A DNA stretch of 64,000 nt from Alphaproteobacteria bacterium (GCA_965248835.1 CBDFLJ010000002.1:896001-960000); one strand, 5' to 3'; counted from the first letter of the stretch, positions 9,351 to 39,471 are shown. The notes: generated from the letters alone by a model not told the origin. Numbers and translations are program-made.

Positions 9351-10388
9351 GTGCTGGCGCTGTCCAAGATAGCGGCGGAGCCCGGCGGGATCGCGCTCGG
9401 CGAGGTCGCGCCGCGCGCGCCGGGGCCGGGCGAGGTCCGGCTCGAGGTCGGCGCGGCCGGGATCTGCGGCACCGACATGCAGATCTACAACTGGGCGCCG
9501 CGGATGGCCCGCCGCATGGCTCTGCCCCGCGTCCTGGGCCATGAGGTCAGCGGCACGGTCGCGGCGCTCGGCGAGGGGGTCGAGGGACTCGCGCTCGGCG
9601 ATTGCGTCGCGCTGGAAAGCCACATCTTCTGCGGCACCTGCCGGGCCTGCCGGCTCGACCGCGCCCATCTGTGCCACAACACCCGCTATCCGGGGATCGA
9701 TATTGACGGCGCGTTCGCCGAACAGGTCACGGTGCCGGCACGGATCGCCTGGAAGACACCGCCCGGCATGAAGCATGAGACCGCGGCCATGCTGGAGCCG
9801 TTCGGTATCGCGGTGCACGCCTGCCTCGCCGGATCGGGCGTTGCCGGGCAATCGGTGCTGGTCGACGGCTGCGGGCCGATCGGGCTGATGACGGTCGCCG
9901 CCGCCAAGGCGCTGGGCGCGCTCACGGTGATCGCCTGCGACGTCAACCCGCTGCGGCTGGAGGCGGCCGTCCGGATGGGCGCCGACCGGACCGCCAACGC
10001 GGCCGAGGACGGGCTCGCCGGGGTCGTCGCCGATGCGACGCGCGGCGCCGGGGTCGATGTCGGGATCGAGTATTCCGGCAGCGAGGCGGGGTTCGGCGCG
10101 GTGTTCGATGCGCTCGCCAAGGGCGGCGACTTCCGCCTGGTCGGCGGCCCGCCCGAGGCGATACCGGTCGACTTCACCTACTGGCTGCTCAAATGCCCCG
10201 TCATGCACACCATCCACGGCCGGCGCATCTGGCAGACCTGGCAGCGCGCGGGCGAGCTTCTGGCTTCCGGCGCGGTGGATCTCGGCCCCGTCAGGAGCCA
10301 TGTCCTTCCCTTGTCGGAGGCGCCGCGCGGTTTCGAGCTGATCCGCACCGGCCAGGCGCTGAAGCCCATCCTGGTCCCCGATCGATGA
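9351..10388 (+). CDS. Zinc-binding MDR dehydrogenase (threonine 3-dehydrogenase-like)
   Basis: GICGTD, GHE, structural Zn ligands C-C-C-C (CGTCRAC...C), EPFG, GCGPIG. Confidence 0.85.
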   Translation: MLALSKIAAEPGGIALGEVAPRAPGPGEVRLEVGAAGICGTDMQIYNWAPRMARRMALPRVLGHEVSGTVAALGEGVEGLALGDCVALESHIFCGTCRACRLDRAHLCHNTRYPGIDIDGAFAEQVTVPARIAWKTPPGMKHETAAMLEPFGIAVHACLAGSGVAGQSVLVDGCGPIGLMTVAAAKALGALTVIACDVNPLRLEAAVRMGADRTANAAEDGLAGVVADATRGAGVDVGIEYSGSEAGFGAVFDALAKGGDFRLVGGPPEAIPVDFTYWLLKCPVMHTIHGRRIWQTWQRAGELLASGAVDLGPVRSHVLPLSEAPRGFELIRTGQALKPILVPDR

Positions 10389-11410
10389 GCAGCCATTCCG
10401 TCACCCTGGTCTTCGAGGACGGCCGGACCGCGCAGTTCGAGGCGAACGAAGACGATACGATTTATCTGGCGGCGCTGAAGAACCGCATCCGGATCGAGAC
10501 CGATTGCCTGGAAGGCGCCTGCGCGACCTGCAAGGGGGTCTGCACCACCGGCGCGTACCGGATGGACGAGTACAGCGAGGAGGCGCTGAGCGCCGAGGAG
10601 GCAGCCCGCCGCGAGGTGCTGACCTGCCAGATGCATGTGCTTTCCGATTGTGTGATCGAATACCCCTACGAGTCCGGGATCGCCATGAAGGCGCCGCCGG
10701 TCACCCGACCCGGGCGTGTCGCCGAGGTCGAGACCGTGGCGGACAACGTCGTCCGCCTGGTGGTCGAGCCCGATGACGCCGACGCCGGCCCGCTGTCCTT
10801 CCTGGCCGGCCAATACGTCCATCTCGGCATCCCGGAGACCGAAGAACAGCGTTCGTACTCCTTCGCCAACCCGCCGCGGATCACCGATCGGCTCGAGTTC
10901 TTTATCAAGGTGCTGGAGACCGGCGCGATGAGCGAGTATGTCGCCGGGCGGGCGAAAGTCGGCGATCCGATGCCGGTCACCGGCCCGTTCGGCCGCTTCT
11001 ATCTGCGCCCGCCGTCGCGCCCGGTCCTGATGATCGCCGGCGGCACCGGGCTTGCGCCGATGCTGTCGATGCTCGATCACATGCTCGATGCCGGCCACAC
11101 CGGCCAGGCCGTCCATCTGCTCTATGGCGCCAACACACCGTCGGAGCTTTTCGCCGCCGGTGCGCTTGACGCCTATGCCGGGCGCGGCCTTGCGCTCACC
11201 ACCGAGCTCTGCACCGTCGAGCCCGATGCGGCCTGGACCGGCGCCACCGGCCACGTCACCACATTGCTGCGGCCCGAGCTGATCCATGGCGGGGCGTGCG
11301 ATGCCTATCTCTGCGGCCCGCCCCCGATGATCGACGCCGGCACCGAATGGCTGCGCCGGGCAGGCCTGGAGTCCGCCCGCATCCACAGCGAAAAATTCCT
11401 GCCGAGCTAG
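10385..11410 (+). CDS. Dioxygenase ferredoxin-reductase component (BenC/XylZ-like)
   Basis: N-terminal 2Fe-2S motif DCLEGACATCK..LTCQ; RSYS; GAMS; AGGTGLAP; YLCGPPPM; EKF. Confidence 0.9.
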   Translation: MSSHSVTLVFEDGRTAQFEANEDDTIYLAALKNRIRIETDCLEGACATCKGVCTTGAYRMDEYSEEALSAEEAARREVLTCQMHVLSDCVIEYPYESGIAMKAPPVTRPGRVAEVETVADNVVRLVVEPDDADAGPLSFLAGQYVHLGIPETEEQRSYSFANPPRITDRLEFFIKVLETGAMSEYVAGRAKVGDPMPVTGPFGRFYLRPPSRPVLMIAGGTGLAPMLSMLDHMLDAGHTGQAVHLLYGANTPSELFAAGALDAYAGRGLALTTELCTVEPDAAWTGATGHVTTLLRPELIHGGACDAYLCGPPPMIDAGTEWLRRAGLESARIHSEKFLPS

Positions 11411-33754: not shown

Positions 33755-34870
33755 TCACACCGGGAAGGCGAGCGCGTCCTTCGGGATGGCGGTCCGCTTG
33801 CCCCCGCGCTGGGCTAGGAAGGCAGCCTTGATCTGGCGGCGGAGCTTGACCGTCTCCTGATCGACGTTGAACAGGAACTCGTTCTTGCGCGCGTCGACCA
33901 GGCTGCCCTGGGCGGCGGCGATGACCGCGTCCTCGGCGGAGACCTGGCGGGCGCGAGGCTGGGCGACCTCGTGGAAGAACCTTGTCAACCGCTCTCGCTC
34001 GGCCGGGTCTTTCGCCCGGAAGCTCGCGAAGCGGGTCACCAGCGTGCGCTCGGCGTCGATCGGTATCTGCCAGACCCGGACGATATAGGGATCGAGCTCC
34101 GATCTGGGCTGGATCGGGTTGGTCGAAAGACACGGCAGCACGAACCGGTCGCCCTTGACGTCGGCGAAATGTCCCTGACCGATCGGATTGCCCGCTGCAT
34201 CGGTCGCCACCGCGCGGATACCGTAAGAGGTGTCGAGGATCTTGACCCGCCGCTCGGCCAGCGGGGCGACGGCCTCGCCGTCCGCGGCGGCGACCGACTG
34301 CGATCCGGCATGAAGGGTGACCGAGTGATAGGCATCCTGGCCGTCGAGCGTCAGCAGCCAGTTCGCCTGCCAGATCTCGGTCGGGAAGCGGAACCAGATG
34401 AAGTTCCGCTCATCCAGCAACTCTTCGGGGACCTCGTCTTCCAGCGGCGGCGGCGGAAATTTCTCGGCGTCGCCGATATAGACCCAGATGTAGCCGCCGA
34501 GCTCCTCGGCCCGGAAGGCGCGGACCGCGATCTCCTCGCGCAGCCGGCTGTCCTCGGGCTCCCACGGGATCAGCGCGCAACGCCCGTCGCCGTCGAACCG
34601 GATGCCGTGGAACAGGCACTGCAGCCTGCCGTCAAGCACCCGGCCGATGGCAAGCTCGGCGTTGCGGTGCGGGCAACGGCCATGGACCGCGCAGACCTTC
34701 CCGGCCGCGTCGCGCCACAGCGCCAGCTCCTCGCCCAGCAAAGCAACGCCGATCGGCTCATCGCGCCCCAGCGCGTCCGAATGGGCGATCGGATACCAGT
34801 AGTTGCGCAGCCCGACCTCCAGCCCCTCCGGCACATCCGGGACGATCTCCTTGATCTCGGCTTTGCTCAC
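33755..34870 (-). CDS. Rieske oxygenase alpha subunit (VanA/phthalate-type, no beta subunit)
   Basis: GGAGG then GTG 34870; GLRNYWYP, CPHR..CLFHG, NW...DAYHSVTLH. Confidence 0.87.
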   Translation of the reverse strand: MSKAEIKEIVPDVPEGLEVGLRNYWYPIAHSDALGRDEPIGVALLGEELALWRDAAGKVCAVHGRCPHRNAELAIGRVLDGRLQCLFHGIRFDGDGRCALIPWEPEDSRLREEIAVRAFRAEELGGYIWVYIGDAEKFPPPPLEDEVPEELLDERNFIWFRFPTEIWQANWLLTLDGQDAYHSVTLHAGSQSVAAADGEAVAPLAERRVKILDTSYGIRAVATDAAGNPIGQGHFADVKGDRFVLPCLSTNPIQPRSELDPYIVRVWQIPIDAERTLVTRFASFRAKDPAERERLTRFFHEVAQPRARQVSAEDAVIAAAQGSLVDARKNEFLFNVDQETVKLRRQIKAAFLAQRGGKRTAIPKDALAFPV

Positions 34871-34956
34871 TTGCCAGGCCCTCCAGCCGGGTCGCAACGC
34901 GGCACCTGAAGCGCTATCGTCGTCCAAACGCCCTGCATCGGCAAGCGGACGGGGAC

Positions 34957-35877
34957 TTGGGCACGAACCTCGATATCATCATCGTCGGCGGCGGCATCGC
35001 CGGGCTGACGGCGGGGCTGCAGTCGGCGCGGCTCGGGCTGTCCTGTCTGGTGCTTACCGGCGAGATGCCCGGCGGCCATCTGCTGAGCATCGGCCGGATC
35101 GATGGCTATCCGGGATTTTCCGACGGCGTTGCGGGCTACGATTTGTGCCCGGGGATCCAACTCGAGGCCGCGGACTGCGGCGCGGCCTTCGCCGCGGCCT
35201 CGCTCGAGACCTTGGAGGTCGGCGCGAACGGGGTCGTCGTCTCCACCGGACGGGACAGCTATGCCGCCCAGGCTGTGATTCTCGCCACCGGGACGCGATT
35301 CAGGACGCTCGGCGTCCCGGGCGAGGACCGGCTGCGCGGCAAGGGTGTCAGCCAGTGCGCAAGCTGTGATGCGCCGTTGCTGCGCGACCGTGTGGTCGCG
35401 GTCGTCGGCGGCGGCGACTCGGCCCTGCAGGAGGCGCTGACGCTCGCCGAGTTTGCCGAGCGCGTGGTGATCGTTCATCGCGGCGCTGCCCTCGGCGGGC
35501 AGCAGGCCTACCGCGCGCGCATCGCGGCTCACCCGAAGATCGAGGTGCGGCTCGGCACCGCCGTGGAGGAGATTCGCGGCGAGGAGGCGGTCGGCGCCAT
35601 CACACTCACCGATGGCGATCTGGAGGTCGCCGGGGTGTTCATATACATTGGCCTTGAGCCGAATACCGGCCCTCTGCGCGGCCTCGTCGGGCTCGACGAG
35701 GCGGGGCACATCCCGACCGGCGTCTCGATGGCCACCGGTCTCAAGGGGGTTTTCGCGGCCGGGACGGTGCGGGCCGGGGCGGCCGGACGGGCGGCGGCCG
35801 CGGCAGGCGATGGCGCGGCCGCTGCGATTGCTGCCGCGCGGTATCTGAAGAGCGGCGTTTGGGAGGATCTCGAATGA
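34957..35877 (+). CDS. Thioredoxin reductase-like FAD/NADPH oxidoreductase
   Basis: GGGIAG, ILATG, GKGVSQCASCD redox CxxC, VVGGGDSA, VHR; C-terminal AAGD motif reads AAGT. Confidence 0.88.
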   Translation: MGTNLDIIIVGGGIAGLTAGLQSARLGLSCLVLTGEMPGGHLLSIGRIDGYPGFSDGVAGYDLCPGIQLEAADCGAAFAAASLETLEVGANGVVVSTGRDSYAAQAVILATGTRFRTLGVPGEDRLRGKGVSQCASCDAPLLRDRVVAVVGGGDSALQEALTLAEFAERVVIVHRGAALGGQQAYRARIAAHPKIEVRLGTAVEEIRGEEAVGAITLTDGDLEVAGVFIYIGLEPNTGPLRGLVGLDEAGHIPTGVSMATGLKGVFAAGTVRAGAAGRAAAAAGDGAAAAIAAARYLKSGVWEDLE

Positions 35878-37508
35878 GCGAACGGCTTGCGGTTCACGAC
35901 CCGCGCGGCAACCCGCCGAGCGTCACCGGCACCCGGCTCGCCCCCAGGCTGGAGAGCCTCGACGGCAAGGTGATCTACCTGGTCGACTGCCTGTTCGACA
36001 ATTCGGACACCTTCATGCGCGAGCTCAAGGACTGGTTCGGCGGCCACCTGCCGGCTGTCGAGACCCGGATCATCAAGCCGCGCGAGAGCTGGGTCGACGA
36101 TCCCGACATGCGCAATCGGATCGAGAACGACGGCGATGGGGCGATCCTCGGGGTCGGGTTGTGAAGCACCTGTAGCCCGACGGTCGTCGGGCTGGCATTG
36201 GATCTGGAGCGGGCCGGCGTCCCGACGGTTCCGGTCCACACACATGTTTTCGACCGGCTGGCGAAGTCGGTCGCGCTGGCCAACGGCATGCCGACCGCGC
36301 GCCAGGCGTTCGTGCCCCAGCCCGTGGTCGACCGAACGTCGGCCCAGCTCCGGGCCTATATCGAAGGGGCCGATCCGGTTTCCGGGCGCCCGTTCGTGCG
36401 CGAGGTGATCGAGGGGCTGACCCGCCCGCTCGACACGGCCGACCTCAAGGGCGTGTCGTTCGAGCGCAGCACGCCACGGTTGATCGAGCCCGACACCGAG
36501 GACAAGCTGCAGTCCTTGTTCGTCCAGGACCATTGGACGGACAATCTGCCGATCGTCCTGCCGACCGAGGCGCGGGTGGCCGCGATGCTCGAAGGGACCA
36601 GCCATGCCGCCGATGAGGTCGTCGGCACGCTGCGGCCGACCGCCTATCGCGAGGCCTGGGAGTTCACCGTCGAGAAGGCCGCGGTCAACGCGGTCATGGC
36701 CGGTGCCAGGCCGGAATACCTGCCGGTCATCCTGGCGCTGCTCGCCAGCGGCCAGACGGCGCGGTCCTCCAGCACCAACTCGTTCGCGGTCATTTCGGTG
36801 GTCAACGGCCCGATCCGTGCCGCGCTCGGCATGAACGACGGGATCGGCGCGATGGGCCCCTACAACCATGCCAACGCGACCATCGGGCGGGCCTACAATC
36901 TGGCTTCGATCAACCTCCAGGGCGGCTCGGTGCCGGGCGACACCTACATGGGCTCGCTCGGCAACTGGTACAATTATTCCGCCACCTTCGCCGAGGCCGA
37001 GGAACGCAGCCCGTGGGCGCCGTTCCACGTCCAGCAGGGGTTCGCGCCCGGCGACAGCACCGCCAGCGTCTTCTTCGGCGGCTGGTACACCCATGCCGGC
37101 TACGGCCCGCGCGAGACGTGGCAGGAAAATTTCAGACGCTCGCTGGCCGGCTGCGAGCACCATTTCCCGCCGCTGTTCGTCATCGATCCGATCTGCGCGC
37201 GCGGGCTGGTCGATCTCGGTTTCGACACCAAGGAGAAGCTGATCGACTGGCTGTCCGACAACGCCCGGCTGCCGGCCCGCGAGTATTGGGACAACCAGTG
37301 GGTCCAGACACTGGTCCACCCGCTGGCGGTCGCGGGCATCGAGCCTTTCGCAGGCAGGCTCGCCGCGGCTCCGGACGAGGCGATCCGGATTTTCGAGCCG
37401 TCCGACATCCATGTCGTCGTCGCCGGCGGCGAGACCCAGGGCGCCTGGAAAATGATCGCCGGGCGCTACGGCCCCAACGCGACGGTGTCGGTCGACGCCT
37501 GGCGCTGA
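35874..37508 (+). CDS. Predicted selenoprotein, 544 aa, Sec97 in UxxC (UGSC-like domain fused to an uncharacterised domain)
   Basis: Same-frame ORFs joined through TGA 36162-36164: ILGVGL-U-STCSPTVV..LERAGVPTV; SECIS-like hairpin downstream; ATGA overlap with the TrxR-like gene. Confidence 0.85.
36174..36193 (+). promoter_or_regulatory. Bacterial SECIS-like hairpin
   Basis: Perfect 8-bp stem AGCCCGAC/GTCGGGCT with GGTC loop, 17 nt between UGA and loop. Confidence 0.8.
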
Positions 37509-37554
37509 GCCGCGCACAGATTCGGGCGCGATGGCCATGGCCGTCGCGCGGCGG

Positions 37555-38631
37555 TCATTGCGCGGCTTCGTCCTCGTGCGCGGCCAGGGCGGCGACTTGA
37601 GCTTCGGCCTTATCGGCCATCAGCTTGCGCACGCGGGTCAGCCCGACATCGTGGTCGTAGAGGTGTTCGCGGGAATCGGCGTCCGGATCGATGGATTCCG
37701 CGACCAGCCGGTCCTGCTCCAGCACGTCCCAGTGCCGCGCTTCCAGCCGGTTCCTGTAAAGAAAGCGCCAGACGTCGCGCTGCCAGCCCGAAACCTTTCG
37801 GTGGCGCCAGAAGAAGCAGGCCGAACTTCCCTCGTCGATCGGGGTGATGTGGAAGACGATGCCGAAATTACCGCCCGGCCCGCCGGTGTCGGGGTAAGGG
37901 ATCTCCAGGCAGACGGCCTGGAAGTCGCGGTCGTACCACTCCGACCAGTCGAAGTTGAGGTCGCGCTGGCCCTTCTTCTCGAAGACGAAGCCGGTCGCGG
38001 TCTTGCGCATGCGGAAGGAAGCCTGATCCGCACCTTCGGCCATGGAATGGGAGACCCGGTGCAGGAATGCGCCGTGCATCGGGTCCATGTTGTTGTCGAT
38101 GATGTAGCGGTAGGGGCAGCGCCATTCGGCGTAGCACAGGAAGACGCCATATTCCTCGCTGCTCAGCCTCTCGGGCGGGGTGAACGGCGCGGGGTTCGCA
38201 TGGAGCGCATCGCCGTACCAGGCGAAGATCGCCCCGCGGTGCTCGATCGCCGGGTAGGTGCGGACGGCGCGGCAGCCGATCAGATCGGAGCCGGGCTGGC
38301 CGGGCAGCGCGGCCACAATGCCGTCGCCGGTGATCTCCGCGCCGTGATAGAGGCAGGTCAGCCGGTCGCCGTCATGGCGGGCGATCGACAGCGGCGCGCC
38401 GCGGTGGGGACAGCGGTCGTCCTGAAGATGGACCGCGCCCGCGTCGTCGCGCCACAGCACCAGCTTGCGGTCCCAGCGCCGCAGCGCGACCGGCCGTGCG
38501 CCCACCCGAGCCGAAGGGCAGATGCCGTACCAGCGGTTCCGGAGCCCGGTCGCCAGCAGCGTCCTCGCGTCCTCGCTCGCCCGGTGAAGCGGGTTAGCCG
38601 TCGCCGCCGCCCAGCCGGCGCATCTCCGCAC
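37555..38631 (-). CDS. Rieske oxygenase alpha subunit (start uncertain, GTG 38631)
   Basis: GLRNRWY, DRCPHRGAPLS..CLYHG, DNNMDPMHGAFLH, VLEQDR; track start 39165 is over-extended. Confidence 0.85.
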   Translation of the reverse strand: MRRCAGWAAATANPLHRASEDARTLLATGLRNRWYGICPSARVGARPVALRRWDRKLVLWRDDAGAVHLQDDRCPHRGAPLSIARHDGDRLTCLYHGAEITGDGIVAALPGQPGSDLIGCRAVRTYPAIEHRGAIFAWYGDALHANPAPFTPPERLSSEEYGVFLCYAEWRCPYRYIIDNNMDPMHGAFLHRVSHSMAEGADQASFRMRKTATGFVFEKKGQRDLNFDWSEWYDRDFQAVCLEIPYPDTGGPGGNFGIVFHITPIDEGSSACFFWRHRKVSGWQRDVWRFLYRNRLEARHWDVLEQDRLVAESIDPDADSREHLYDHDVGLTRVRKLMADKAEAQVAALAAHEDEAAQ

Positions 38632-39214
38632 CGAAGCTCGCCTCGGTCCACGGCTTGCCGTCCGGCGCCGCGATGCCGAGCGCGTTGAGCCCGGCGGCGA
38701 TTTCCGCCAGATCCTGGACGCCGCGCCGGAACAGCTCCTCCAGCGCATCGCCCAGCCGGTTCTCGGCCTCGTCCGGCTCTCCGGCACCGGATTGCCGGGG
38801 CTCCAGGGAGAGCCCGTTGTGGGGCAGGCGCGGGTGATCGCCGCCGCCGGCTCGGCTGTTGACCGGCCCGTCGGGGTCGGCCCAGGCCGTGCCGCGGGCC
38901 TTCGCTTCGCGGGCCAGGCGTTCGCGCACGCCGATGAAATCGTAGCTCGGATAGGTCTCGGTGCGGAAAACGCCCCAGGCCGATCGCTCCAGCTCGACGT
39001 TGACCGCCTGCAGCCTGGAGGGCGGCAGGCGTAGGGTGAGGATCTGGCCGACTCCCATGACCACGTTCCACGACACGATCTCGACGCCTTCGGGCGGGAA
39101 GCGCCCCCACCAGTCGCGCTCGTCGAGCTTGGCCTGAAACTCCTCCAGGCGCTGCGACTGGTCATGGCGCAGGAAGACGGTGAGCAGGATCTCCTCGCCC
39201 TTGATATCGTCCAT
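38594..39214 (-). CDS. Two-domain protein: uncharacterised N-domain plus recombinase-like HTH domain
   Basis: N: LLTVFLRHDQS..FPPEGVEIVSWNVVMGVGQ; C: ENRLGDALEELF..AAGLNA..PDGKPWTEASFGAEMRRLG. Confidence 0.65.
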   Translation of the reverse strand: MDDIKGEEILLTVFLRHDQSQRLEEFQAKLDERDWWGRFPPEGVEIVSWNVVMGVGQILTLRLPPSRLQAVNVELERSAWGVFRTETYPSYDFIGVRERLAREAKARGTAWADPDGPVNSRAGGGDHPRLPHNGLSLEPRQSGAGEPDEAENRLGDALEELFRRGVQDLAEIAAGLNALGIAAPDGKPWTEASFGAEMRRLGGGDG

Positions 39215-39471
39215 CAACGGTCTCCCGATTTCTCGTGCGCCAGCTTCGCACAGTCCGGCGTCTCGAGCAGCGGCCTCGTGTCCAGGCGTCGGCGCACGCC
39301 GCAGAACCGCCGGACCCGGCCATCCTCTTTCATACAGCGGTGAAGTACGCGAAGCGGTCCGGTTTCGCCGTCAAGACCGGCGGCCGGCGCTGTCCACCGA
39401 CCGGGCGGCGGTTTGACAAGCCCACCGCAGGGCTTGCATGCTCGCTTTCCAATAAAGCAAGGGAGAGGACG

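Follow-up and report, generated by a model that had tools for sequence, protein, structure and literature searches.

Few selenoproteins of aquatic metagenomes are as numerous as the UGSC-containing proteins: the available part of the 2008 survey by Zhang and Gladyshev (PLoS Genet, PMC2398784) lists 255 sequences in 37 GOS samples, and in several non-marine samples they form the top family (Table 2). The fusion of a UGSC domain with a second domain, termed Unknown_1, was already printed there, with its function given as unknown, and the available text of a 2026 review (PMC13188914) counts UGSC with the proteins whose roles 'remain largely uncharacterized'. The accessible portions of the UGSC literature, PMC2398784 included, give neither a function nor a TrxR partner, and we found no paper that states a pairing of a TrxR-like protein with a UGSC selenoprotein. 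A selenoenzyme served by its own reductase is described for glycine reductase, as the grd operon has its own TrxA3 and TrxB3 (available sections of PMC10880999). The same sections name HRRxxxR and GxGxxA as the motifs marking NAD(P)H-dependent TrxRs, and describe Clostridioides difficile TrxB1 as an FFTR-type enzyme, which does not use NADPH and from which both motifs are absent.

In the window (the whole stretch of DNA analysed, 64,000 nucleotides from an Alphaproteobacteria bacterium), a TrxR-like flavoprotein gene (34957-35877, plus strand, 306 aa from a TTG start; product P0002) is followed on the same strand by a selenoprotein gene (35874-37508, 544 aa plus stop when TGA is read as U; product P0001) that encodes a UGSC domain fused to Unknown_1. 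Gene content, alignments and predicted structures make it fairly probable that this pair is a self-contained two-protein flavoprotein-to-selenoprotein reductase, to which the flanking Rieske oxygenase genes are unrelated.

The frame 35874-37508 contains a single in-frame TGA (36162-36164, plus strand), giving G-L-U97-S-T-C100. A TGA occurs at the homologous codon in all 41 full-length related loci, with the frame conserved on either side, and the Sec site reads U-S-[TS]-C in 41/41 relatives. Starting 10 nt after the UGA (nine bases lie between UGA and stem), a SECIS-type hairpin with an 8-bp stem and a GGUC loop is predicted by the minimum free energy fold (36174-36193, plus strand). When its 41 distinct sequences are aligned, 92.7% of cells are paired; the pair 18-27, for example, is GC in 25 sequences, CG in 11, UA in three and AU in two, and is never unpaired. 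The covariation score of the hairpin is 0.208, versus 0.082 in shuffles (none of the 500 reaches 0.208) and at most 0.056 in slid controls. Moreover, the same genome carries selA, selB, selD and tRNA-Sec, on another contig than the pair, so that everything by which a bacterial selenoprotein is recognized from sequence (a UGA, a conserved stem-loop with G/U in its loop, and selA, selB, selC and selD) is found. As the TGA is kept in 41/41 loci, the GGUC-loop hairpin covaries and the genome holds the Sec machinery, the TGA at 36162-36164 encodes selenocysteine and the gene is, on this sequence evidence, a genuine selenoprotein gene. Database searches detected more than 7435 homologues of P0001. 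With few exceptions, the top 120 measure 406-438 aa, a length that would result from gene callers ending the ORF at the TGA. The P0001 architecture is found in the 42 loci on which our comparisons rely, and also in database proteins of 530-570 aa.

The sequence-only reading had presented the protein as part of an undescribed module. This does not hold for P0001, which by its domain matches belongs to the long-known UGSC family. Residues 7-162 (35892-36359, plus strand) match Pfam PF24696 with 86 bits, against a 25-bit cut-off, and P0001, with a UGSC domain and then Unknown_1 in one chain, has the fusion arrangement printed in 2008. The earlier description of a UxxC domain with a second domain fused to it was accurate: the C-terminal domain, which is conserved, shares with P0001's published counterparts the block AVNxVMAGxxPEYxPV...VNGP, as printed in Fig. 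S1A of PMC2398784, and like other family members P0001 has a UxxC motif with a TGA-encoded Sec. Three differences from the published family can be noted. P0001 has the UxxC form of the literature definition but not the literal U-G-S-C, which is replaced by U-S-T-C. The Unknown_1 cysteine stressed in 'MAGC' in the available text of PMC2398784 is an alanine in P0001; among the 22 relatives aligned, only three (L022, L039 and L041) have the Cys. Finally, that text proposed a Trx-like fold for UGSC, whereas our AF2 model predicts a flavodoxin/CheY-like alpha/beta fold, residues 28-190 of which resemble receiver/Rossmann-like domains with VIA Z of 8-10.6. P0001 scores 61.2 bits on the NCBIfam equivalog model NF041046, below its cut-off of 125; with its 147 positions, this model corresponds in length to a stand-alone UGSC protein. 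The same genome encodes a second UGSC copy of this stand-alone kind, to which the Pfam model gives 153-160 bits, and close P0001 homologues carry the NCBI label 'UGSC family (seleno)protein'.

In the AF2 model, U97-S-T-C100 is placed between a strand (89-95) and a helix (100-113), so that U97 stands at a helix N-terminus after a beta strand, a position which we count in favour of redox chemistry. Such chemistry is not universal to this architecture, since a comparison with 18 full-length homologues that are more distant and have no TGA shows a CxxC at the Sec site in five and none in the other 13, which nonetheless keep both domains. These 13 homologues are one argument for regarding the partner domain as a non-redox enzyme (a hydrolase, lyase or isomerase), with a structural or regulatory UGSC-like domain whose Sec/Cys pair would be a redox switch and not a catalytic nucleophile. 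The partner domain itself (residues ~190-544, 36441-37505, plus strand, with a WTDxLP...PTE motif) also offers some arguments in this direction: the alignment of relatives reveals no conserved Cys in it and no metal-binding His pattern, and its model weakly echoes the folds of class I fumarate hydratase and cyclic-amide hydrolases (Foldseek E of 1e-3 to 5e-2 with TM of ~0.2; VIA Z of 4.3-4.9). These fold matches are at noise level, however, and Sec is kept in 41/41 close relatives despite the cost of a SECIS element. Conservation of Sec of this kind is typical of a catalytic residue in selenoenzymes, and we regard the redox switch as distinctly unlikely. The partner domain looks like a substrate-binding enzyme domain, as suggested by its many invariant polar residues, which include D223, T231, E267, S300, R339, E374, K453 and D541. 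It belongs to a family of 3943 representative homologues (clusters), and no match was found for it in Pfam, NCBIfam or PDB sequences. Its structure is confidently predicted (pLDDT 93.8, pTM 0.92); Foldseek yielded no solved relative (best E 1e-3, TM 0.2), and the best VIA score was Z 5.6 over 75 residues.

The upstream protein, P0002, has the main features of low-Mr TrxB: an FAD-binding motif (GGGIAG), a redox-active C135-A-S-C138 and a GxGxxA motif (GGGDSA). It also has a Trp close to the C-terminus. Pfam assigns it to Pyr_redox_2 with 118 bits. It differs from TrxB in scoring 264.6 bits on NCBIfam TIGR01292, below the equivalog cut-off of 343.45, in having HRGAALG at the HRRxxxR position, and in belonging to a separate clade. 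The genome's second TrxR copy, located elsewhere, is a canonical TrxB that scores 404 bits on the same model and carries HRRDRLR at that position. The TrxR tree was built from 42 sequences (21 selenoprotein-adjacent proteins, five from an unbiased class sample and 16 housekeeping TrxBs, the genome's own TrxB included), and it separates the 21 adjacent and five sampled sequences from the 16 TrxBs with 100/99 support. All 26 come from genomes that also have a UGSC fusion, and the clade was encountered in no others. P0002 is thus a member of a TrxR clade which, in these trees and genome comparisons, stands apart from housekeeping TrxB and is tied to the UGSC selenoprotein, in agreement with its initial description as an atypical TrxR.

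Motif checks of 21 members of this clade found the CxxC in every one, GxGxxA retained, and HRRxxxR in none. NTRs are defined by GxGxxA and HRRxxxR together, and P0002 lacks the latter, so that NADPH, proposed as donor from the sequence alone, is unsupported. The loss of HRRxxxR is shared with the clostridial, ferredoxin-dependent FFTR-type TrxRs, from which P0002 differs by still having GxGxxA. In a search of PDB sequences, low-Mr TrxRs came top (E 1e-55, ~38-40% identity over the full length), and P0002 is nearer to these NTRs than to 6gna and 6gnd (E 1e-25), which we take to be solved FFTR-type chains.

The two genes are tightly linked. The TrxR-like gene ends in ...GAA TGA and the selenoprotein gene begins with the ATG at 35874, so that stop and start share ATGA (35874-35877) and form a true 4-nt overlap, as had been noticed from the sequence; a ribosome-binding site, GGGAGGA, lies 7 nt upstream of this ATG. 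Of the 42 related loci, 20 carry a TrxR-like gene immediately upstream in the same orientation; by their record titles, these 20 belong to Alpha-, Beta- and Gammaproteobacteria and to a planctomycete MAG. Two more loci have the gene within 6 kb. Spacing was measured at 19 adjacent loci and is -4 nt (the ATGA overlap) in three and 2-88 nt in 15. No TrxR-like gene lies within 6 kb at the remaining 20 loci; at two of these the sequence available upstream is shorter than 900 nt, and one was matched only in part. In a sample of 400 Alphaproteobacteria genomes, selenoprotein orthologues (at least 64% identity) occur only in G030, G094 and G260. The same three genomes give the best TrxR-like matches (46-52%), and the next two TrxR-like matches (45%) adjoin more distant UGSC fusions. 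The neighbourhood comparison that the sequence-only reading had called for thus reveals a wide linkage. A WCGPC-type motif was found in a sizeable ORF within ~6 kb in only one of 43 stretches; as far as these sequences go, no thioredoxin gene accompanies the pair.

Whether the TrxR-like protein is a dedicated reductase, as initially proposed, receives a mixed answer. The linkage and the selenoprotein-tied clade speak for it, and yet all five genomes that we checked among those with no adjacent TrxR-like gene lack a clade member and have only a TrxR 36-38% identical to it. The selenoprotein can therefore work without the dedicated reductase, which is optional. This observation leaves room for another explanation, in which the general thioredoxin system reduces the selenoprotein, the TrxR-like protein mainly serves some other client or boosts general disulfide reduction, and adjacency reflects co-regulation. 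The housekeeping-type TrxR of those five genomes, the absence of the TrxR-like gene from about half of the loci, and the looser arrangement in some genomes (genes ~1.4 and 5 kb apart in two, on different contigs in one) are all compatible with it. We nevertheless judge it rather unlikely, given the restriction of all 26 clade members to UGSC-fusion genomes, the tight spacing with its ATGA overlaps, and the lack of an accompanying thioredoxin gene.

The pair is nested between two Rieske oxygenase genes on the opposite strand, as originally reported. Gene A, an alpha-subunit gene divergent from the TrxR-like gene (33755-34927, minus strand, probable GTG start at 34870), matches Pfam Rieske with 76 bits and Aromatic_hydrox with 26.5 bits. 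Gene B, with a VanA-type C-domain (37555 to ~38631, minus strand; Rieske 57 bits, VanA_C 48 bits), and the selenoprotein gene are convergent. The start of gene B is uncertain, as the GTG at 38631 overlaps the gene upstream. No ferredoxin or ferredoxin-reductase gene appeared in Pfam scans of the submitted ORFs over ~28.7-43.6 kb, as the earlier description had it, and the region has a catabolic look, with SDR, amidase and amidohydrolase genes and ABC and TRAP transporters. Position, surroundings and the missing ferredoxin or reductase in this 15 kb could together suggest that the pair serves the Rieske oxygenases, by supplying or protecting them or by reducing an S-O, N-O or S-S bond of their substrate or product in one catabolic pathway. 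We find this scarcely credible. Rieske homologues occur near the pair, and the nesting is reproduced, in none of the 42 related loci; the closest relative, L011 (selenoprotein 89% identical), has the TrxR-like gene, the selenoprotein gene and HTH_62 but neither Rieske gene, and gene B is missing from the space between selenoprotein gene and HTH_62. In addition, the pair and the Rieske genes lie on opposite strands, and Pfam detects no Fe-S or ferredoxin domain in P0002 that would make it a Rieske electron-transfer component. The flanking Rieske genes are, to judge from these comparisons, local neighbours in an unrelated catabolic neighbourhood, outside the module, and a misleading lead is thereby removed.

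Elsewhere, the pair has quite different neighbours, among them selA/selB/selD, TctC, DUF1989 and GMC oxidoreductase genes, which also argues against the Rieske connection. Proximity to selB and/or selA (in L034, L037, L038, L041, L043 and L044) or to a Pyr_redox_2-SelD fusion gene (in L027, L037 and L051) raises the question of whether the module handles selenium itself, for example by making or delivering reduced selenium for SelD, instead of reducing an organic substrate. Selenoprotein genes are often found near the Sec machinery through co-inheritance, and in our genome selA, selB, tRNA-Sec and selD are on another contig. The large conserved partner domain, with its resemblance to a substrate-binding enzyme domain, is another reason why we hold a role in selenium handling to be very unlikely.

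Returning to the two-protein reductase, electrons would pass from a pyridine nucleotide (NADH or NADPH, although another donor is possible) to the FAD of P0002, and from FAD to its C135/C138 dithiol. This dithiol would directly reduce the U97-C100 selenenylsulfide, with no separate thioredoxin, and the U97 selenolate would then act at the active site of the partner domain, reducing some small-molecule substrate. Going further, we suggest with considerable reserve a possible new type of selenoenzyme system. In it, a TrxR-clade flavoprotein that has given up thioredoxin as well as the NADPH motif would itself recharge the Sec/Cys domain of flavodoxin fold; the selenolate of that domain would reach into the partner domain, whose fold has no solved relative, for a reductive reaction on a metabolite. 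If true, this would provide a biochemical role for an orphan selenoprotein family that ranks among the most abundant in aquatic and soil metagenomes. The putatively co-translated flavoprotein reductase would offer a concrete biochemical handle on UGSC proteins, and the partner domain represents a large family with a confident predicted structure.

Compared with low-Mr TrxB, P0002 would differ in its client, which is likely a non-thioredoxin domain. The differences from the grd operon are several. According to the available sections of PMC10880999, that operon has a thioredoxin gene (TrxA3), of which there is none beside our pair, and its TrxB3 keeps the HRRxxxR motif that P0002 lacks. There are no equivalents of GrdA, GrdE or GrdC/D here, and GRDB (PF07355) gave no match to P0001 at E up to 10 and none in a genome-wide search where the controls were equally silent, which leaves room for a remote homology. 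The hosts also differ, a proteobacterium of a Defluviicoccus-like group as opposed to a Stickland fermenter. What both systems have in common, within what these sections describe, is a Sec-dependent reductase encoded with a dedicated TrxR-family flavoprotein, in which electrons would flow from a dithiol to the selenoprotein.

The TrxR-like flavoprotein (P0002) is encoded on the forward strand at 34957-35877 (TTG start, 306 aa), and its stop codon overlaps the start of the selenoprotein gene in an ATGA at 35874-35877, a Shine-Dalgarno sequence (GGGAGGA) lying ahead of the selenoprotein ATG. The selenoprotein frame, on the same strand, spans 35874-37508 and comprises 545 codons with a single internal TGA at 36162-36164. 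Two [2Fe-2S] Rieske oxygenase genes flank the pair on the reverse strand: Rieske A (33755-34927, with the GTG at 34870 as probable start) is divergent from the TrxR-like gene, and Rieske B (37555 to about 38631), which has a VanA-type C-domain, is convergent with the selenoprotein gene. Pfam scans of the submitted ORFs between about 28.7 and 43.6 kb identified an SDR, a luciferase-like monooxygenase, an amidohydrolase, TRAP and ABC transporter parts and an amidase, and no ferredoxin or oxygenase reductase. The sequence-only reading had thus described the layout accurately, including the ATGA overlap, the opposite-strand Rieske genes on both sides and the lack of a ferredoxin or reductase. A 536-aa ATG-started ORF (37555-39165) was rejected as the Rieske B gene, its first ~180 codons overlapping in another frame an HTH_62 gene (38594-39217, reverse strand) that has its own Pfam match of 80 bits. 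This gene, directly upstream of Rieske B, encodes a 207-aa product with a C-terminal 'recombinase-like' HTH_62 domain; no ATG, GTG or TTG occurs between its stop and the Rieske domain, and the nearest GTG (38631) overlaps it by 38 nt.

The internal TGA of the selenoprotein gene is a selenocysteine codon. A pattern scan retaining one genome per species yielded 42 related loci (58-89% identity), and TGA is found at the Sec site in all 41 loci covering it (L052, which matches residues 158-544 only, was excluded), in the context G-[LH]-U-S-[TS]-C and with the frame kept on both sides. A hairpin with an 8-bp stem and a GGUC loop (36174-36193) begins 9 bases past the UGA, and its pairing is kept in 92.7% of cells among 41 distinct sequences. 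One of its pairs is formed by two synonymous third-codon positions (GC in 25 sequences, CG in 11, UA in 3, AU in 2, never unpaired), and the covariation score is 0.208, versus 0.082 in shuffles (none of 500 reaching the observed value) and at most 0.056 with the partner slid. The same genome encodes the Sec machinery, with selA, selB and tRNA-Sec adjacent on contig 1 and selD at a separate place. The selD match (contig 1, 494681-495598) falls within an 817-aa open frame, which hints at a fused (Ndh-type) SelD, as with the 761-aa one in locus L051. More than 7435 homologues of the selenoprotein are found in the database; the best 120 are nearly all 406-438 aa long (most 434-436), as expected if gene calling ends at the TGA and resumes beyond it.

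Residues 7-162 of the selenoprotein match the Pfam family UGSC (PF24696) with 86 bits (cut-off 25 bits). With the NCBIfam equivalog NF041046 the score is 61 bits, under its 125-bit cut-off, and close homologues are named 'UGSC family (seleno)protein' by NCBI. The accessible part of PMC2398784 presents the UGSC-containing protein as a selenoprotein that is abundant in marine and freshwater metagenomes and has no known function, and a 'UGSC/Unknown_1' fusion is printed in its supplementary Fig. S1. As the printed block of this fusion (AVNxVMAGCxPEYxPV ... VNGP) is the same as in our protein, where it lies at residues about 270-315, the architecture of UGSC plus partner domain was already described in 2008. 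The redox module had been put forward as a candidate undescribed one, but the selenoprotein family and its fusion are already in print, in Pfam and in NCBIfam, and the copy studied here is one further member. The family is still without a function in the available portions of later reviews (PMC9312934, PMC13188914). Compared with the family as it appears in the accessible part of PMC2398784, the motif is here U-S-T-C, and the Cys highlighted there in 'MAGC' is an Ala, being Cys in only 3 of the 22 aligned relatives. The N-domain model adopts a flavodoxin/CheY-like three-layer alpha/beta fold (model residues about 28-190; VIA Z 8-10.6 and rmsd 2.5-5.4 A over 112-141 aligned residues), whereas a thioredoxin-like fold had been suggested in 2008, as far as that part of PMC2398784 goes; such Z values, obtained on a predicted structure, are middling and show a common arrangement only.

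The partner domain (residues about 190-544) matches no Pfam or NCBIfam family and no PDB sequence: a Pfam search relaxed to E 10 returned only noise, and PDB searches with the selenoprotein and with a 57-sequence C-domain profile returned nothing meaningful (best E 0.4). The family is nevertheless large, with 3943 representative clusters at E <=0.001 and 358 at 1e-30, and it occurs as full-length fusions with the UGSC domain (530-570 aa), TGA-truncated calls (~430 aa), stand-alone proteins (about 360-400 aa) and a ~710-aa form matched in two stretches. The latter form includes P0168, P0190, P0192, P0219, P0235 and P0243 (709-741 aa, no Pfam domain), in which the partner domain is apparently either tandemly duplicated or present in a two-domain form. 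The structural model built from the 57-sequence alignment is very confident (pLDDT 93.8, pTM 0.92), and Foldseek searches with the whole and C-domain models gave no match at E 0.001 or better. Class I fumarate hydratases recurred in both searches (TM 0.13-0.24) and were the top rows for the C-domain (E 1e-3, TM about 0.2). The best VIA-align hit against all representatives was an OmpA-like/FakA sub-domain (Z 5.6 over 75 residues), with fumarate hydratases at Z 4.3-4.9; we rejected homology to either, Z values of 4.3-5.6 reflecting common arrangements. The modelled fold thus could not be placed, a weak or missing match being no proof of a new fold. Conserved positions of the domain are mostly polar or Gly/Pro and include no cysteine; D223 and T231 belong to a WTDxLPxxxPTE motif, and the others are E267, S300, N334, R339, E374, W381, K453, D541 and W543.

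Distant full-length homologues lacking the TGA (n = 18) carry CxxC at the Sec site in five cases and no such pair in 13. The latter (P0132, P0135, P0142, P0143, P0152, P0170, P0179, P0185, P0200, P0201, P0217, P0250 and P0271) share 31-46% identity and both domains. The architecture thus also exists in forms incapable of dithiol or selenol chemistry at this site, which genuinely complicates any reading built on redox chemistry alone. These homologues speak for a non-redox role, which we hold to be improbable for a pair whose selenoprotein keeps its Sec codon throughout the closer loci.

The linkage of the two genes, also proposed from the single sequence, was borne out elsewhere. Using tblastn around the 42 related loci, we found the TrxR-like gene directly upstream of the selenoprotein gene, on the same strand, in 20 of them (L011, L012, L015, L022, L023, L028, L030, L033, L035, L036-L044, L050 and L051; matched in three pieces in L035). 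In L027 it is 1.5 kb downstream, and in L034 about 5 kb off on the other strand; it was not found within 6 kb in the other 20, two of which have <900 nt of upstream sequence and one of which is a partial match. By record titles, the adjacent loci belong to several families of Alphaproteobacteria, Burkholderiales, Gammaproteobacteria and one planctomycete MAG. Of the 19 measured, three have an intergenic distance of -4 nt (ATGA), 15 one of 2-88 nt and one a distance of 175 nt. In L029 and L034 (selenoprotein gene) and L035 (TrxR-like gene), the match is broken into two or three pieces that lie in different frames. They may be frameshifts, owing either to assembly errors in long-read MAGs or to decay of the copies.

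A link of the pair to the flanking Rieske oxygenases had also been put forward as a possibility. This link did not survive comparison and is very improbable: homologues of Rieske A or B (>60 bits) are present in 0/42 loci, and both are missing from L011, where the selenoprotein and the TrxR-like protein are 89% and 79% identical to ours. That Rieske genes border the pair in this genome is a local accident. In L011, an HTH_62 gene (71% identity to ours) directly follows the selenoprotein gene. Elsewhere, the neighbours of the pair are selB and/or selA (six loci), a Pyr_redox_2-SelD fusion (three loci), TctC receptors, DUF1989 (in a Defluviicoccus-like group) and GMC oxidoreductases. Adjacency to Sec genes (L027, L034, L037, L038, L041, L043, L044 and L051) suggests co-inheritance of the pair with the Sec machinery in those genomes. 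A selenium-handling role for the pair would draw on the same neighbourhoods; we regard it as improbable too. Eight loci (L012-L014 and L016-L020), Defluviicoccus-like relatives mostly without the TrxR-like gene, have a DUF1989 gene (211 aa, 129 bits) immediately after the selenoprotein gene; the window has no such gene.

The genome also carries a split second copy of the system ~38 kb ahead of the window (contig 2, 857829-859428, reverse strand; L094:5830-7428). It consists of two genes: one encodes a stand-alone partner domain of 350 aa, which shares 38% identity with our C-domain, and the next, directly after it, a stand-alone UGSC selenoprotein with the TGA in a canonical U-G-S-C motif (Pfam 160 bits). 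Upstream of them is an SDR gene, and the 14 kb around the copy showed no recognisable TrxR or Trx. Similarly, the fusion gene of L022 is followed ~2.5 kb downstream by a paralogous stand-alone partner-domain gene (10119-10790, reverse strand; residues 206-425 aligned at 35% identity).

P0002 is, by sequence, a low-Mr thioredoxin-reductase homologue: it matches Pyr_redox_2 with 118 bits, and bacterial TrxRs head its sequence matches in the PDB (about 1e-55). It scores 264.6 bits with TIGR01292, below the 343.45 cut-off, whereas the genome's canonical trxB, on contig 1, reaches 404. P0002 retains the FAD motif, CASC and GGGDSA, but HRRxxxR, typical of NTRs, is replaced by HRGAALG, the canonical TrxB having CATC and HRRDRLR. 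In an alignment of P0002 with 20 relatives from the related loci, CxxC is found in 21/21 and HRRxxxR in 0/21. GxGxxA and HRRxxxR are the motifs used for calling NAD(P)H-dependent TrxRs (PMC10880999, accessible part). As the clade has lost HRRxxxR, the proposal that NADPH is the donor is not established, and NADH or another donor are equally open alternatives.

A maximum-likelihood tree of 42 sequences splits 26 TrxR-like proteins (these 21 plus those of genomes G030, G094, G260, G240 and G367) from 16 housekeeping-type ones, including the canonical TrxB, with support 100/99; adjacent members were picked by adjacency, and those from the class sample by E-value alone. Co-occurrence with UGSC genes was assessed on the 26 clade members and this one sample. 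Among its 400 evenly drawn Alphaproteobacteria genomes, partner-domain orthologues (64-70% identity) occur only in G030, G094 and G260, exactly the three with the best TrxR-like matches (46-52%); the two genes are 1.4 kb apart in G030, about 5 kb apart in G260 and on different contigs in G094 (a 790-contig assembly). The next matches (45%; G240 and G367) have more distant UGSC-type genes (30% identity) next to them, and at the 15 remaining loci, from other genomes (37-42%; L065-L068, L070-L074 and L076-L081) no UGSC-type neighbour was found within 1.5 kb. No link between a dedicated TrxR-like clade and the UGSC fusion was found in the full-text literature available, which leaves subscription journals outside its coverage.

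Taken together, a two-protein relay from flavoprotein to selenoprotein is the best-supported reading and, on balance, a probable one. A pyridine nucleotide or another donor would reduce the FAD, which would pass electrons to the C135/C138 dithiol; this in turn would reduce a U97-C100 selenenylsulfide, allowing chemistry at the partner domain. Transfer would be direct, without a thioredoxin intermediate, Sec would be catalytic rather than regulatory, and the reaction is presumably a reductive one on a small molecule. Reduction of the selenoprotein mainly by the general Trx system is, in our view, unlikely, though less so than the other alternatives. It would suit the five genomes examined that have the selenoprotein and no adjacent TrxR-like copy (those of L013, L017, L018, L020 and L021, mostly Defluviicoccus-like closest relatives): in 5/5, the best TrxR match (36-38%) is the housekeeping enzyme, which counts against strict dependence on the TrxR-like protein. 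The distinct clade and its conserved adjacency point to a dedicated reductase. A six-frame scan of 43 stretches for WCGPC-type motifs returned one plausible thioredoxin (L031) and three chance-looking matches. For the two-protein relay, we compared the glycine reductase operon: its GRDB model (PF07355) has no match in our protein or genome (controls being blank too), and the other Grd proteins are all absent here. This operon is still the nearest functional precedent, as it encodes, according to the accessible part of PMC10880999, its own TrxA3/TrxB3, through which a selenoenzyme is served.
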